Shown one piece after another: positions 19,504-44,827 of a stretch of 64,000 nt of DNA. Numbering within the stretch: position 1 is the stretch's first letter; every line of letters begins with the position of its first letter. Origin of the DNA: Escherichia coli (GTDB taxonomy: Bacteria; Pseudomonadota; Gammaproteobacteria; Enterobacterales; Enterobacteriaceae); assembly GCF_048403405.1 (NCBI RefSeq), contig NZ_CP183129.1; one strand, given 5' to 3'. A model generated the notes under the pieces. That model was not told the DNA's origin. It was given only the letters and a program-made list of their open reading frames with translations, and searched no databases. Made by a program: the position numbers and the translations under genes.

Positions 19504-21573
19504 ATGTCTGAGAAAACTTTTCTGGTGGAAATCGGCACTGAAGAGCTGCCACCAAAAGCACTGCGCAGCCTGGCTGAGTCCTTTGCTGCGAACTTTACTG
19601 CGGAGCTGGATAACGCTGGCCTCTCACACGGCACCGTTCAATGGTTTGCTGCTCCGCGTCGTCTGGCGCTGAAAGTAGCTAACCTGGCGGAAGCGCAACC
19701 GGATCGTGAAATCGAAAAACGCGGCCCGGCGATTGCTCAGGCGTTCGACGCTGAAGGCAAACCGAGCAAAGCGGCAGAAGGCTGGGCGCGTGGTTGCGGT
19801 ATTACCGTAGACCAGGCTGAGCGTCTGACTACCGATAAAGGTGAATGGCTGCTGTATCGCGCCCACGTGAAGGGCGAAAGCACCGAAGCACTGCTGCCGA
19901 ATATGGTTGCGACTTCGCTGGCGAAACTGCCGATCCCGAAACTGATGCGCTGGGGCGCAAGCGACGTGCACTTCGTGCGTCCGGTGCACACCGTGACTCT
20001 GTTGCTGGGCGACAAAGTTATTCCGGCTACCATTCTGGGTATTCAGTCCGATCGCGTAATTCGCGGCCACCGCTTTATGGGCGAGCCGGAATTTACCATC
20101 GACAATGCCGATCAGTATCCGGAAATTCTGCGTGAGCGCGGTAAAGTCATCGCCGATTACGAAGAACGTAAAGCGAAGATTAAAGCCGATGCTGAAGAAG
20201 CGGCGCGTAAGATTGGCGGTAACGCTGACTTAAGCGAAAGCCTGTTGGAAGAAGTCGCTTCGCTGGTGGAATGGCCGGCTGTGCTGACCGCAAAATTCGA
20301 AGAGAAATTCCTCGCGGTGCCGTCTGAAGCACTGGTTTACACCATGAAAGGTGACCAGAAGTACTTCCCGGTGTATGCGAACGACGGCAAACTTCTGCCG
20401 AACTTTATCTTCGTTGCCAACATCGAATCGAAAGATCCGCAGCAGATTATCTCCGGTAACGAGAAAGTCGTTCGTCCACGTCTGGCGGATGCTGAGTTCT
20501 TCTTCAATACCGACCGTAAAAAACGTCTGGAAGATAACCTGCCGCGCCTGCAAACCGTGCTGTTCCAGCAACAGCTGGGTACACTGCGTGACAAAACTGA
20601 CCGCATCCAGGCACTGGCTGGCTGGATTGCTGAACAGATTGGCGCTGACGTTAACCATGCTACCCGTGCGGGCCTGCTGTCTAAGTGCGACCTGATGACC
20701 AACATGGTCTTCGAGTTCACCGACACCCAGGGCGTTATGGGGATGCACTACGCGCGTCACGATGGCGAAGCGGAAGATGTTGCAGTGGCGCTGAACGAGC
20801 AGTATCAGCCGCGCTTTGCCGGTGATGACCTGCCGTCTAACCCGGTAGCCTGTGCGCTGGCGATTGCTGACAAGATGGATACTCTGGCGGGTATCTTCGG
20901 TATCGGCCAGCATCCGAAAGGCGACAAAGACCCGTTTGCGTTGCGTCGTGCCGCACTTGGCGTACTGCGTATTATCGTTGAGAAGAACCTCAACCTTGAT
21001 CTGCAAACGCTGACCGAAGAAGCAGTGCGTCTGTATGGCGATAAGCTGACTAATGCCAACGTGGTTGATGATGTTATCGACTTTATGCTCGGTCGCTTCC
21101 GCGCCTGGTATCAGGACGAAGGTTACACCGTTGACACCATCCAGGCGGTACTGGCGCGTCGTCCGACTCGTCCGGCAGATTTCGATGCCCGTATGAAGGC
21201 GGTATCGCATTTCCGTACCCTGGATGCAGCTGCTGCACTGGCGGCGGCGAACAAACGTGTATCCAACATTCTGGCGAAATCTGACGAAGTGCTGAGCGAC
21301 CGCGTGAATGCTTCTACCCTGAAAGAGCCGGAAGAAATTAAACTGGCGATGCAGGTTGTGGTGCTACGTGACAAGCTGGAGCCGTACTTTGCGGAAGGTC
21401 GTTACCAGGATGCGCTGGTCGAACTGGCAGAGCTGCGTGAGCCAGTTGATGCTTTCTTCGATAAAGTGATGGTCATGGTTGATGACAAAGAATTGCGAAT
21501 CAACCGTCTTACCATGCTGGAGAAACTGCGCGAATTATTCCTGCGCGTTGCGGATATTTCGCTGTTGCAGTAA
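19504..21573 (+). CDS. glyS: glycine--tRNA ligase beta subunit (689 aa)
   Basis: 689-aa ORF 9 bp after glyQ; recognised GlyS sequence. Confidence 0.95.
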
Positions 21574-21617: not shown

Positions 21618-21871
21618 TCGCTAAATAATACAGCAACCTTTAATAATCTTCTGATGAATAAAGATTATCTCATATATTAATTTTATGAGATTTTTTTAGG
21701 ATTATATCAAGGAGAAGAAACGAACTTATTAAGCTAGAATAGCCACGGGTGCTTGAGACTGTTTGTCTCAGGTATTCACCGAAAGGCAGACAGAGAAAAG
21801 CCCCACCTGACTATAAATCAAAAGTGTACTGCACCCATTTTGTTGGACGATGAAATGGAATAGCCCCTAAT

Positions 21872-22393
21872 ATGTCAAAGCCAAAATACCCTTTTGAAAA
21901 GCGCCTTGAAGTCGTGAATCACTACTTCACAACTGATGATGGTTACAGGATCATCTCGGCACGTTTTGGTGTCCCCCGAACCCAGGTCAGGACATGGGTT
22001 GCCCTCTATGAAAAACATGGAGAAAAAGGTTTAATTCCCAAACCTAAAGGCGTTAGTGCTGATCCAGAGTTGCGTATTAAGGTCGTGAAAGCTGTGATCG
22101 AGCAGCACATGTCCCTTAATCAGGCTGCTGCTCACTTTATGCTTGCTGGTAGTGGTTCTGTAGCCAGGTGGCTGAAGGTCTATGAAGAGCGCGGAGAAGC
22201 TGGTTTACGCGCGCTCAAGATTGGCACCAAAAGAAACATTGCAATATCAGTTGATCCAGAAAAAGCGGCATCAGCATTGGAGCTGTCAAAAGACCGACGC
22301 ATTGAGGATCTTGAAAGGCAAGTTCGATTTCTTGAAACGCGGCTTATGTATCTAAAAAAGCTGAAAGCCTTAGCTCATCCCACGAAAAAGTAA
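21872..22393 (+). CDS. insJ: IS150 OrfA (173 aa, HTH DNA-binding)
   Basis: 173-aa ORF inside IS150 left part. Confidence 0.9.
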   Translation: MSKPKYPFEKRLEVVNHYFTTDDGYRIISARFGVPRTQVRTWVALYEKHGEKGLIPKPKGVSADPELRIKVVKAVIEQHMSLNQAAAHFMLAGSGSVARWLKVYEERGEAGLRALKIGTKRNIAISVDPEKAASALELSKDRRIEDLERQVRFLETRLMYLKKLKALAHPTKK

Positions 22394-23241
22394 AAGTACT
22401 CAACGAGCTAAGGCAGTTTTATCCTCTTGATGAGCTTCTCAGGGCTGCGGAGATACCGCGCAGTACGTTTTATTACCATCTAAAGGCTCTCAGCAAGCCT
22501 GACAAGTATGCGGACGTTAAAAAGCGTATTGGTGAGATTTATCATGAGAATAGAGGCCGATACGGATACCGTAGGGTAACGCTGTCTCTTCATCGAGAAG
22601 GGAAACAGATTAACCATAAAGCTGTTCAGCGCCTGATGGGAACCCTCTCACTTAAGGCAGCGATTAAGGTCAAGCGATACCGCTCTTACAGAGGAGAGGT
22701 AGGGCAAACCGCCCCCAATGTTCTCCAAAGAGATTTCAAGGCTACGCGGCCAAACGAGAAGTGGGTTACCGATGTTACTGAATTTGCAGTCAATGGGCGC
22801 AAGCTGTATTTGTCTCCAGTAATAGATCTCTTCAACAACGAAGTTATTTCTTACAGCCTTTCGGAAAGACCAGTGATGAACATGGTCGAGAATATGCTCG
22901 ATCAGGCATTCAAAAAGCTTAATCCTCACGAGCATCCTGTTCTGCACTCTGACCAGGGATGGCAGTATCGTATGAGAAGATATCAAAATATCCTTAAAGA
23001 ATATGGTATTAAACAAAGCATGTCCAGAAAAGGCAATTGTCTGGATAATGCTGTGGTGGAGTGTTTCTTTGGAACCTTAAAATCGGAGTGTTTTTATCTT
23101 GATGAGTTCAGTAATATAAGCGAACTGAAGGATGCTGTTACGGAATATATTGAATACTACAACAGCAGAAGAATTAGCCTGAAATTAAAAGGTCTGACTC
23201 CAATTGAATATCGGAATCAGACCTATATGCCTCGTGTTTAA
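22336..23241 (+). CDS. insK: IS150 OrfB reading frame (DDE transposase catalytic domain), expressed as OrfAB fusion by -1 frameshift
   Basis: -1 frame relative to orfA is open from 22336 to the stop at 23241; slippery heptamer A AAA AAG at 22354-22360 in orfA frame; no in-frame ATG before 22636, so the 5' boundary is by frame only. Confidence 0.8.
22354..22360 (+). promoter_or_regulatory. programmed -1 ribosomal frameshift heptamer A AAA AAG of IS150
   Basis: Heptamer phased X XXY YYZ in the orfA frame, inside the orfA/orfB overlap. Confidence 0.8.
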
Positions 23242-23282
23242 CTGTCCAACTTTTTGGGGTCAGTACAAAGTGAGGCTACCCT

Positions 23283-23495
23283 ATGCCTGAACACCATAAG
23301 GTTAGCCTCTTACTCGTTGGAAATCAACACAGGGGGCTGGGAATGCCGCAGAAATATAGATTACTTTCTTTAATAGTGATTTGTTTCACGCTTTTATTTT
23401 TCACCTGGATGATAAGAGATTCACTGTGTGAATTGCATATTAAACAGGGGAGTTATGAGCTGGCGGCATTTTTAGCCTGCAATTTGAAAGAGTAA
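23283..23495 (+). CDS. mokA: mok-type overlapping reading frame of the hokA locus (70 aa)
   Basis: ORF starting 16 bp after the IS150 right end, co-terminal with hokA as in hok/sok-type loci. Confidence 0.45.
   Translation: MPEHHKVSLLLVGNQHRGLGMPQKYRLLSLIVICFTLLFFTWMIRDSLCELHIKQGSYELAAFLACNLKE
23343..23495 (+). CDS. hokA: Hok-family type I toxin (50 aa)
   Basis: MPQKYRLLSLIVICFTLLFFTWMIRDSLCELHIKQGSYELAAFLACNLKE, canonical Hok single-TM peptide. Confidence 0.85.
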   Translation: MPQKYRLLSLIVICFTLLFFTWMIRDSLCELHIKQGSYELAAFLACNLKE

Positions 23496-23627
23496 GAGTC
23501 TTCGGCGGGAAGTTATTCCCGCCTTTCTTACGGCGTTGCGCATTCTCATTGCACCCAAATTTATTTTTCACAAAAATAATAATAGATTTTATTACGCGAT
23601 CGATTATTTATTTCCTGAAAAACAAAT

Positions 23628-23656
23628 AAAAAAATCCCCGCCAAATGGCAGGGATC
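23628..23656 (-). terminator. rho-independent terminator of cspA
   Basis: On the minus strand: ccctgccatttggcgggga followed by TTTTTTT, 27 bp after the cspA stop. Confidence 0.55.
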
Positions 23657-23682
23657 TTAGATTCTGTGCTTTTAAGCAGAGA

Positions 23683-23895
23683 TTACAGGCTGGTTACGTT
23701 ACCAGCTGCCGGGCCTTTAGCGCCGCTTTCGATGGTGAAGGACACTTTCTGACCTTCGTCCAGAGATTTGTAACCATCGTTCTGGATAGCAGAGAAGTGT
23801 ACGAACACGTCTTTAGAGCCATCGTCAGGAGTGATGAAGCCGAAGCCTTTGTCAGCGTTGAACCATTTTACGATACCAGTCATTTTACCGGACAT
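23683..23895 (-). CDS. cspA: major cold-shock protein CspA (70 aa)
   Basis: [21 protein letters not shown]... with RNP1/RNP2 motifs. Confidence 0.95.
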
Positions 23896-24091
23896 AGTGT
23901 ATTACCTTTAATAATTAAGTGTGCCTTTCGGCGATATGGCGTGCTTTACAGATTTTGAAGCGTTAAAGGAATGTGCACTACGAGGGGTATCAACGATAAC
24001 TCTTGAAGGGACTTGCCTTACTACACTGCTTTAATGGTCTGTACGTCAAACCGTTGATGTGCATTAAGCCACGCATTGGCGGGTGTTGCAA
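23896..24091 (-). promoter_or_regulatory. cspA promoter and 159-nt 5' UTR
   Basis: -10 CTTAAT (24063-24068) and -35 TTGCAA (24086-24091) with 17-bp spacing; transcript start ACGGUUUGACG maps to about 24054; AT-rich upstream element. Confidence 0.6.
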
Positions 24092-24175
24092 CAATTATTT
24101 TTCATATTTATGATTAATCGGTTGGAAAACGGTCCTGTCATCAGGACCGTAAACAGCAATAAAGTGGATAAAAGT

Positions 24176-24466
24176 CTATTCCATCAACTGCTTACTTAAT
24201 GCCGGGTTGGCTTGAATCAAACGCATCAATTTTAGTTCGGCACTTGAAGGCTTCACGCGTCTGGATTCCCATTCCTTTACCATGGCGACTGATACGCCCA
24301 AAACCCGGGCGAAATCATCGATTTTTAATCCTGTCCCTTTTCGTAACTGCTCAATTTCGGTACAGGATGTTGTTCTGTGCGTCAGGGTAATTTTCTGCGT
24401 TTCATCTTTAAAAACAATCTGTTCTAGGCTGCTCAACAGCTCATGCATTGGATCTTTATATTCCAT
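24176..24466 (-). CDS. yiaG: HTH (Cro/C1-type) transcriptional regulator (96 aa)
   Basis: 96-aa ORF with C-terminal XRE-type HTH. Confidence 0.8.
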   Translation of the reverse strand: MEYKDPMHELLSSLEQIVFKDETQKITLTHRTTSCTEIEQLRKGTGLKIDDFARVLGVSVAMVKEWESRRVKPSSAELKLMRLIQANPALSKQLME

Positions 24467-35251: not shown

Positions 35252-35328
<77 letters not shown>

Positions 35329-35664
35329 AATTCGAAATGCCTGCTCAGCGAGCAGGCTTTTTTGCATTTGTAGCTCATGAGGATGAGAACCTCCGGGGGC
35401 GGGGAGGTTCGACTCGAGCGAAGCGAGAGAACGTTGCGCCAGCAACGGCCCGCAGGGCGAGCCACGAAGTGGCGAGTAATCCTCTATCACCGACCAAATT
35501 CGAAAAGCCTGCTCAGCGAGCAGGCTTTTTTGCATCTGCAGCCCATGAGGATGAGAACCTCCGGGGGCAGGGAGGTTCGACTCGAGCGAAGCGAGAGAAC
35601 GTTGCGCCAGCAACGGCCCGCAGGGCGAGCCACGAAGTGGCGAGTAATCCTCTGGCACCGACCA
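35329..35664 (+). repeat. two tandem 168-bp direct repeats after proK, each with a terminator-like hairpin and a copy of the tRNA-Pro 3' end
   Basis: Unit 1 35329-35496, unit 2 35497-35664, about 95% identical; each has gcctgctcagcgagcaggcTTTTTT and ends in aatcctct(a/g)(t/g)caccgacca. Confidence 0.85.
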
Positions 35665-43278: not shown

Positions 43279-43753
43279 AAAGTCCTGTCCAGAAAGAAGT
43301 CGGCCTCGCAAAAATGAATAAACCCAGTTTCTCTTGCGCAACAGGTGGAGAAGTCGAATACGCAGTATGTAAAAAATGAGGCAACAGATTCACTGGGGAG
43401 GTCGCGAGTAGGCGCAATTCTACAAAATTGCGCATTTCACTACCAGTCTGGAGTCAGCCCGGATATGAACTGCAACTATTGCAAATAAAGAAATTAAGCT
43501 GGAAGGCATCGCGCAATGAGGAAGATTGCCGGGTGCTGACGGTAAAAAGCAATCGTAGAATCAGCGGCAAGCCGGAAAGGTTCCGGTGAGGCGCAATGTT
43601 GCGGGGGCTTTATCCCTGGTGGCATTGGTTGCTGGAGAGAGAAAACCCCCGCACGTTGCAGGTATGCACCTGACAACATCACGGGGGCCATTCTTGAACC
43701 TACACAACTCAAGAATAGCCGCGAAACGTTGTCATTACAACAGAGGCGGCTAT

Positions 43754-43861
43754 ATGACGCTCGCAGAGCTGGGCATGGCCTTCTGGCACGATTTAGCGGC
43801 TCCGGTCATTGCTGGCATTCTTGCCAGCATGATCGTGAACTGGCTGAACAAGCAGAAGTAA
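43754..43861 (+). CDS. Ldr-family type I toxin peptide, copy 1 (35 aa, ...NWLNKQK)
   Basis: MTLAELGMAFWHDLAAPVIAGILASMIVNWLNKQK; ATG at 43754. Confidence 0.8.
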   Translation: MTLAELGMAFWHDLAAPVIAGILASMIVNWLNKQK

Positions 43862-44236
43862 CGTGTCAGACGGGCGTCAGGCTGCCGTAATGGCAATTTG
43901 CGCCCGGATCAGGCCGCAGGGATAAAACTCTGCGGCCTTTTTCGTAAGAAAAATGCAACGGTTGCAAGCGGATAATATTCTGCGGAATGCGCAGCACAGA
44001 GTGAAGAAGTGACGGATTCCGGAACAGAAAAACAGTCGTAGAATCAGCGGCAAGCCGGAAGGGTTCCGGTGAGGCGCAATGTTGCGGGGGCTTAATCCCT
44101 GGTGGCATTGGTTGCTGGAGAGAGAAAACCCCCGCACGTTGCAGGTATGCACCTGACAACACCACGGGGGCCATTCTTGCATCCAAACAATACAAGAATA
44201 GCCGCGAAACGTTGTCATTACAACAGAGGCGGCTAT

Positions 44237-44344
44237 ATGACGCTCGCAGAGCTGGGCATGGCCTTCTGGCATGATTTAGCGGCTCCGGTCATTGCTGGCA
44301 TTCTTGCCAGCATGATCGTGAACTGGCTGAATAAGCGGAAGTAA
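44237..44344 (+). CDS. Ldr-family type I toxin peptide, copy 2 (35 aa, ...NWLNKRK)
   Basis: MTLAELGMAFWHDLAAPVIAGILASMIVNWLNKRK; 483 bp after copy 1. Confidence 0.8.
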   Translation: MTLAELGMAFWHDLAAPVIAGILASMIVNWLNKRK

Positions 44345-44719
44345 CGTGTCAGACGGGCGTCAGGCTGCCGTAATGGCAATTTGCGCCCGGACCAGGCCGC
44401 AGGGATAAAACTCTGCGGCCTTTTTCGTAAGAAAAATGCAACGGTTGCAAGCGGATAATATTCTGCGGAATGCGCAGCACAGAGTGAAGAAGTGATGGAT
44501 TCCGGAACAGAAAAACAGTCGTAGAATCAGCGGCAAGCCGGAAAGGTTCCGGTGAGGCGCAATGTTGCGGGGGCTTAATCCCTGGTGGCATTGGTTGCTG
44601 GAGAGAGAAAACCCCCGCACGTTGCAGGTATGCACCTGACAACACCACGGGGGCCATTCTTGCATCTAGACCATTCAAGAATAGCCGCGAAACGTTGTCA
44701 TTACAACAGAGGCGGCTAT

Positions 44720-44827
44720 ATGACGCTCGCAGAGCTGGGCATGGCCTTCTGGCATGATTTAGCGGCTCCGGTCATTGCTGGCATTCTTGCCAGCATGATC
44801 GTGAACTGGCTGAACAAGCGGAAGTAA
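44720..44827 (+). CDS. Ldr-family type I toxin peptide, copy 3 (35 aa, ...NWLNKRK)
   Basis: Identical peptide to copy 2; 483 bp after copy 2. Confidence 0.8.
   Translation: MTLAELGMAFWHDLAAPVIAGILASMIVNWLNKRK

Follow-up and report, generated by a model that had tools for sequence, protein, structure and literature searches.

The cspA control region of an Escherichia coli chromosome, like that of K-12 save for a rare base in the -35 hexamer

The segment between positions 23896 and 24091 of a 64,000-nucleotide stretch of Escherichia coli DNA (NCBI RefSeq assembly GCF_048403405.1, contig NZ_CP183129.1), hereafter the window, is almost certainly the known cspA control region, ordinary save for one rare base in its -35 hexamer, and it comprises exactly the leader and the core promoter. 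All of the cspA control parts are present, and their order, exact sequence, and conservation are demonstrated here (Table 1). The window itself is E. coli chromosome in the orientation reverse to the K-12 map, and its gene order yiaG-cspA-hokA-IS150-glyS is that of K-12. The cspA control region seen here is already known, and nothing in our data alters existing knowledge of cspA.

A sequence-only reading of the window had put this region forward as a positive control for annotation, naming two promoter hexamers (TTGCAA and CTTAAT) spaced by 17 bp, an AT-rich upstream element, a cold-responsive 5' untranslated region of 159 nt, and a terminator, all located beside hokA and IS150. The positive control is valid, since the placement of promoter, leader, and terminator agrees to the base with independent tools. 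The hexamers and their spacing were read directly from the DNA, the gene order bears out the location, and both the AT-rich element and the terminator are recognizable, although these two lie outside the segment 23896-24091.

Table 1. Coordinates, strands, and characteristics of the features discussed, in window positions
Feature	Position	Strand	Remarks
glyS	19504-21573	+	
IS150	21825-23267	+	
hokA	23343-23495	+	stop codon ends at 23495
cspA intrinsic terminator	23628-23658	-	12-pair stem 23658-23631, 4-nt loop, T run of 7
cspA coding sequence	23683-23895	-	70 codons plus stop; ATG 23895-23893
Downstream box region AUGACUGGUAUCGU	23870-23883	-	codons 5-9; invariant in alignment
cspA 5' untranslated leader	23896 to 24054/24055	-	159 nt from A24054, 160 nt from A24055
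Shine-Dalgarno AAGG	23905-23908	-	9 nt upstream of ATG; direct reading; invariant in alignments
'Upstream box' GCCGAAAGGCACA	23920-23932	-	includes GCC-GAAA-GGC hairpin; direct reading
5'-terminal hairpin GGUUUG-ACGUA-CAGACC	24036-24052	-	Rfam consensus helix, model positions 4-20
Cold box core UGACGUACAGA	24038-24048	-	inside the 5'-terminal hairpin
-10 hexamer CTTAAT	24063-24068	-	direct reading; same as K-12
Extended -10, TG plus one base	TG 24071-24070 (TG-G to 24069)	-	direct reading
Spacer	24069-24085	-	exactly 17 nt; direct reading
-35 hexamer TTGCAA	24086-24091	-	direct reading; MG1655 has TTGCAT
AT-rich UP element AATCATAAATATGAAAAATAATTG	24092-24115	-	directly upstream of the -35 hexamer
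Terminator-like hairpin of yiaG, ACGGTCCTG-ATGA-CAGGACCGT	24129-24150	-	followed by TTTTCC; direct reading
yiaG	24176-24466	-	
yiaF		+	beyond yiaG in window order
ghrB		-	beyond yiaG in window order
tRNA-Pro(CGG)	35252-35328		
Two RtT repeat elements	35363-35496, 35529-35664		after tRNA-Pro(CGG); 99-101 bits
rdlD RNAs	43640-43705, 44123-44188, 44606-44671	-	82-84 bits each

The cspA promoter and its -35 hexamer

The spacer, the TGn motif, the -10 hexamer, and the UP element are base-for-base the same as in MG1655, and the -35 hexamer agrees with that of the cspA sigma-70 promoter at 5 of 6 bases; judged by these matches, the window carries what is clearly the cspA promoter with one rare substitution. 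The UP element has A or T at 19 of the 22 bases in 24113-24092, and its AAAATAA core is invariant between genera in our alignment. Further upstream, the cspA control region is bounded by the terminator-like hairpin of yiaG, the stem of which is conserved in Escherichia, Citrobacter, and Salmonella-like loci. This hairpin was not called by a terminator scan, because its T run consists of four Ts only.

A requirement for the UP element is credited to Mitta et al. (1997), as cited in PMC9947658, and the TGn motif of cspA to Phadtare and Severinov (2005), as cited in bioRxiv 10.1101/2021.03.08.434349. Furthermore, FIS sites centred at -10, -60, +32, and -120 and an H-NS site centred at about -40 have been described for this promoter, which FIS stimulates, H-NS represses, and (p)ppGpp inhibits via a GC-rich discriminator (PMC4877382). 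The window promoter would accordingly be of the same type as described for K-12, a sigma-70 promoter with weak hexamers that may be made strong by the AT-rich UP element and the extended -10 TG, and that would be modulated by FIS, H-NS, and (p)ppGpp.

The cspA promoter escaped a generic sigma-70 scan of the region, which accepts only an A at the second position of the -10 hexamer, where CTTAAT has a T. Therefore, the case for the promoter is built on identity to the promoter studied experimentally in K-12 and on the phylogenetic footprint, and not on a consensus match, and we discarded the scan as unusable evidence in either direction. From a practical point of view, a consensus-only scan misses the very strong cspA promoter.

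In this context, we compared the cspA loci of E. coli lineages, E. albertii, E. whittamii, cryptic Escherichia clades, seven Citrobacter genomes, and five further loci, here called Salmonella-like, which were assigned by their downstream neighbour cueP. Across the Escherichia, Citrobacter, and Salmonella-like loci, no change is seen in the motifs GTTGCAT and TG-n-(C/G)TTAATG or in the cold-box hairpin, with the clone of the window as the exception at -35, and the leader is likewise invariant over almost its entire length; free variation across the compared loci is found in the 17-nt spacer and in the DNA upstream of the AAAATAA core. Such a pattern is the one that would be expected of a real promoter followed by a functional leader. 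The discriminator is one nucleotide shorter (GCAC-TCAAC) in E. coli 18KM2445, in E. whittamii, and in the Citrobacter and Salmonella-like loci than in most E. coli, and therefore the start can lie at more than one distance from the -10 hexamer.

Additional loci were sought by scanning a genome collection with the 16-mer TCGTTGATACCCCTCG, which gave 55 matches, 12 of them confirmed by BLAST as real cspA loci of Escherichia and Citrobacter. For a match in Kluyvera, BLAST gave no match to the region, and the remaining matches were discarded as chance occurrences in unrelated phyla. Salmonella was missed by the 16-mer scan because its leader differs within the 16-mer; the Salmonella-like loci were recovered by exact-protein look-up.

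The control region had also been described as fully preserved. This holds for the leader, the -10 hexamer, the TGn motif, and the UP element, all identical to MG1655, but not for the -35 hexamer, which reads TTGCAA against the published, near-universal TTGCAT, the comparison with MG1655 placing a T-to-A difference at base 24086, the sixth base of the hexamer. The K-12 61-mer promoter is found unchanged in 4,350 of 5,421 E. coli genomes and the 61-mer of the window, with TTGCAA, in six; sampled genomes departing from the K-12 61-mer have a G-to-A change in the spacer or the 1-nt shorter discriminator. A 31-mer centred on 24086, which under megablast can match only the same allele, was likewise found in 6 of the 5,426 complete genomes (TUM14771, GN02461, 4621, MS 69-1, TUM1226, and OX030728). 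Over the adjacent 24.8 kb, these genomes match the window at ~100% identity, the next genome reaching 99.3%, and they also have the IS150-hokA segment in common; therefore, they represent one clone and one mutational event. Sequencing error was rejected as the source of TTGCAA, since the allele is common to six independent complete assemblies. Moreover, TTGCAT is present in all other Escherichia, Citrobacter, and Salmonella-like loci examined, and this distribution marks the T-to-A change as a rare derived one.

The sigma-70 consensus at -35 is TTGACA, with A as the consensus base at position 6, the least conserved position of the hexamer, and the T-to-A change raises the number of matches from 3/6 to 4/6. 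In our judgement, the change is most likely neutral or mildly promoter-strengthening. As the substituted site is otherwise invariant, an unchanged promoter function would be an assumption. It is possible, though in our view rather doubtful, that it measurably alters cspA transcription, whether by the better match to the sigma-70 -35 consensus or by changed occupancy of H-NS or FIS. Base 24086 is T in every other sequence from three genera despite the variable adjacent spacer, which implies constraint, and the A allele is confined to 6 of 5,426 genomes; however, these six belong to one clone, and such a distribution is equally expected of a neutral recent mutation. We rated a measurable effect as rather unlikely because position 6 is the weakest at -35 and the promoter leans on its UP element and TGn motif. 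Indeed, the strong dependence of the promoter reported for its UP element (Mitta et al., 1997) and for TGn (Phadtare and Severinov, 2005) would make the -35 hexamer less critical, and cspA is regulated mostly after transcription. On the other side, base 24086 adjoins the centre of the H-NS footprint (at about -40) and falls between the FIS centres at -10 and -60, by their published positions (PMC4877382).

Likewise, the proposal that TTGCAA is a functional promoter mutation, raising basal cspA transcription or altering H-NS/FIS control in one human-associated E. coli clone, is offered here only tentatively and looks somewhat unlikely. Were TTGCAA functional, the clone would have a different basal or cold-shock level of CspA, and the allele would be a natural example of regulatory tuning of the major RNA chaperone. 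The word preserved consequently needs a population check, as the differing base lies in a core promoter element and occurs in ~0.1% of complete genomes.

Leader, mRNA fold, and terminator

The leader of the window is 100% identical to that of MG1655. Counted back from the ATG at 23895, the 159 nt of the sequence-only reading put the start at A24054, in agreement with a published leader length (PMC6719143); a length of 160 nt has also been given (PMC6386945), and both the numbering of Giuliodori (160 nt) and position 1 of the Rfam model RF01766 begin at A24055. These two bases lie 8-9 nt downstream of the -10 hexamer, and, by analogy with K-12, we infer that transcription starts at A24054/A24055. 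The RF01766 cspA thermoregulator model matches 23628-24055 of the minus strand over all of its 428 positions (1-428 of 428; 501 bits, against a gathering score of 78 bits; E 2.4e-142), and every one of its 124 consensus pairs can form in the window as G-C, A-U, or G-U. Chance can be dismissed as the source of this agreement.

Among the leader elements, the exact cold-box 11-mer UGACGUACAGA is taken here to be that of Jiang et al. (1996), and the name 'upstream box' together with its 13-mer GCCGAAAGGCACA is presumably owed to Yamanaka et al. (1999), a study cited in PMC6386945; we likewise assume that the downstream-box 14-mer AUGACUGGUAUCGU in the coding sequence is that of Mitta et al. (1997). 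A cold box is described in PMC6719143, and the downstream box has been located within the first 9 codons (PMC6386945). The 5'-terminal hairpin is predicted at all temperatures and is invariant in all loci compared, and the GCC-GAAA-GGC hairpin is present both in the Rfam consensus and in the RNAalifold structure. Taken together, the traits of a csp leader, namely its length of 159/160 nt, the cold-box hairpin (24052-24036), and the downstream-box region (23883-23870), are present in the window and invariant in its relatives.

The 428-nt cspA mRNA has been described as a thermosensor with two folds (PMC9947658). At 37 °C, a long helix joins the leader to coding nt 232-326 and the RNA is less open to ribosomes, and the cold fold resembles the 187-nt 5' fragment and is well translated, CspA then aiding ribosome progression (PMC9947658; PMC6386945). 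Furthermore, cold induction and cold stabilization of cspA mRNA are known for K-12 (PMC9947658).

In our ViennaRNA calculations, the minimum-energy fold of the 428-nt mRNA is predicted to switch sharply between 19 and 20 °C. At 19 °C and below, leader nt 26-72 are predicted to pair with nt 192-229, with 100 of the 124 Rfam pairs formed, the same count as in the minimum-energy fold at 10-15 °C; at 20 °C and above, they are predicted to pair with nt 230-268, ~40 nt further downstream in the coding region. The fold switch of the K-12 allele is the same, and the sole coding difference between the two (C in place of U at mRNA nt 247) affects a base that pairs in neither fold, and it leaves the switch unmoved. 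Cold is predicted to open the Shine-Dalgarno sequence in the 187-nt fragment, where its probability of being unpaired is 0.02 at 37 °C and 0.32 at 10-15 °C. For the full-length RNA, the equilibrium model predicts a paired Shine-Dalgarno sequence and a paired AUG whatever the temperature, and therefore the model itself does not reproduce the cold-enhanced accessibility, which is credited in the literature to co-transcriptional folding. The equilibrium fold calculations agree in direction with the published switch.

Covariation gave no signal: among 11 Escherichia and Citrobacter sequences, in which the paired columns are nearly all invariant, 0 of the 42 RNAalifold pairs carried a compensatory change. 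The signal is missing because the sequences hardly vary, and therefore the argument for the structure draws on conservation and published probing only.

On the model of K-12, cold induction and the structural switch would also be expected in the window strain. The promoter would drive a 428-nt mRNA with a 159/160-nt leader, the mRNA itself acting as the thermosensor; at low temperature its fold would be more open to ribosomes and the transcript would be stabilized, with CspA then acting on the cspA leader. At 37 °C, the leader and the coding region would be joined by another long-range pairing, and the RNA would be quickly degraded.

By the Rfam placement, the transcript ends at 23628, and the 3' arm of the terminator stem continues into the T tract. 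The stem arms, GATCCCTGCC and GGCGGGGATC, are conserved across genera in the alignment, and the loop is variable.

Neighbouring genes and identity of the gene

The cspA terminator had been placed about 130 bp from the 3' end of hokA, and the measured distance bears this out: 132 bp lie between the end of the cspA T run (23628) and the end of the hokA stop codon (23495), and ~100 bp between the cspA terminator and a hairpin at 23504-23523 that is the likely end of the hokA transcript, the two genes converging. Like cspA, the small ORF ysaE, annotated in K-12 (23 aa, MRNAVRKAGITSRRRLLLFQIAG), is on the minus strand; it is intact at 23472-23543, starts 85 bp past the cspA terminator, and overlaps in antisense the 3' end of hokA and the hairpin at 23504-23523.

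This geometry, with the cspA mRNA ending at 23628, ysaE 85 bp further on, an antisense overlap with the hokA 3' end, and ~100 bp between the terminator hairpins of two convergent genes, would be compatible with a functional closeness of cspA and hokA, in which the cspA transcript, very strong and cold-induced, would read through into ysaE and, in antisense, past the 3' end of hokA, and so link ysaE or the toxin mRNA to cold shock. We consider this very unlikely. The cspA terminator is strong and conserved, with a 12-pair GC-rich stem followed by seven Ts, and in a literature search on ysaE no paper contained that term, those listed containing cspA only. Moreover, cspA of the Salmonella-like and Citrobacter loci has another gene downstream (cueP, not hokA), and yet cspA and its terminator are unchanged there; therefore, the adjacency of cspA and hokA is not conserved outside Escherichia.

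A still more improbable proposal is that TTGCAA, being self-reverse-complementary, creates a divergent promoter on the plus strand (TTGCAA-17 nt-TATGAT, 24086-24114) that would fire towards yiaG and run antisense to the end of that gene. In the scan, this site has 9/12 matches, one more than with the K-12 allele (ATGCAA), but the region holds two such sites against 2.7 expected in shuffles, which is the level of chance, -10-like hexamers are frequent by chance in AT-rich UP elements, and conservation does not speak for the site.

Concerning the gene itself, protein identity and synteny identify it as the cspA orthologue of b3556 and not as a paralogue. Its protein is the same as K-12 CspA at 70 of 70 amino acids and has the NCBIfam model NF007679 (CspA) as its top NCBIfam match, with 172 bits against a cut-off of 130. 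The 641-bp cspA region was found in 5,422 of 5,426 complete E. coli genomes, and over its length the window differs from MG1655 by just four nucleotides, namely the -35 base 24086, the codon at 23809, an extra T (~23622), and an A/G difference (23566), the last two downstream of the cspA terminator. The codon at 23809 is GAC in the window and GAT in K-12, a synonymous difference in which GAC is the allele of all remaining aligned sequences. That the region belongs to a paralogue (cspB, cspG, or cspI) or is a misassigned csp gene has a negligible probability and was rejected, together with the identity 'cspE', for although PGAP calls the gene 'cspE' in most complete genomes and the protein scores above the cut-off of the CspE equivalog model NF049933.1 (124 against 120 bits), the amino-acid identity to CspA, the four nucleotide differences, the higher score with the CspA model, and the K-12-like gene order all speak against it.

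The label given by RefSeq/PGAP to authentic cspA in most complete E. coli genomes is 'cspE: transcription antiterminator/RNA stability regulator CspE', a misnaming of practical consequence that probably arises because CspA clears the CspE equivalog cut-off and the better-scoring NF007679 has merely 'subfamily' rank.

The IS150 copy near hokA is another insertion than that of K-12. It inserted simply, duplicating the target AAG, and comparison of its flanks (21747-21824 and 23268-23345) with an uninterrupted locus (L061) shows the hok 5' region to be intact. In K-12, the IS150 near hokA is inverted and has another junction, with ~36 bp of the hok leader missing. The arrangement of the window, counted where at least 80% of a 2-kb query lay in one place, is found in 901 of 5,426 complete genomes, and IS150 appears, from these junctions, to have struck the hokA regulatory region at least twice. 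An Rfam match to the sok antitoxin at 21747-21901 (83 bits, above the gathering score) crosses the left end of IS150 at 21825; its 3' half was rejected as an alignment artefact, only the first ~78 nt being hok/sok DNA and the rest forced into IS150. A second, sub-threshold sok match (23190-23345, 42.6 bits) lies on the other side of the insertion.

Elsewhere in the window, three tandem ldr/rdl type I toxin-antitoxin units occupy 43586-44827, in which a plus-strand Ldr ORF of 35 aa, MTLAELGMAFWHDLAAPVIAGILASMIVNWLNK(Q/R)K, lies opposite each rdlD. At this locus, K-12 presumably has a single ldrD/rdlD.

Comparison with known systems

The closest known system is cspA of K-12 MG1655 (b3556; RF01766), to which the window is identical in leader, UP element, TGn motif, -10 hexamer, 17-nt spacer, protein, and terminator stem, with the same neighbours yiaG, hokA, and glyS. 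The two differ in the -35 hexamer (TTGCAT in MG1655, TTGCAA in the window), in the synonymous codon at 23809, and in two changes past the terminator; in addition, the neighbouring IS150 has the opposite orientation and another junction in K-12.

The cspA genes of Citrobacter and of the Salmonella-like loci are alike in TG-n-NTTAATG, the cold box, most of the leader, the downstream box, the terminator stem, and the upstream yiaG, and they have TTGCAT at -35. In contrast to the window, their -10 hexamer is GTTAAT instead of CTTAAT, their spacer differs, their discriminator is 1 nt shorter, and their leaders show small indels; the Salmonella-like loci, furthermore, are without hokA or IS150 downstream.

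The paralogues cspB, cspG, and cspI also have long leaders (160, 155, and 145 nt, respectively), a cold box, and a downstream box (PMC6719143), as well as TGn promoters (bioRxiv 10.1101/2021.03.08.434349), and they work on the same principle. They lie at other loci and have other sequences, and are set apart from the window gene by its cspA identity and synteny.

As in cspA, mRNA structure senses temperature and controls ribosome access in the ROSE, fourU, and rpoH thermometers, but these are short hairpins that melt as the temperature rises, unlike cspA. In cspA, the entire transcript can take up alternative folds, by which translation is favoured at low temperature (PMC9947658).
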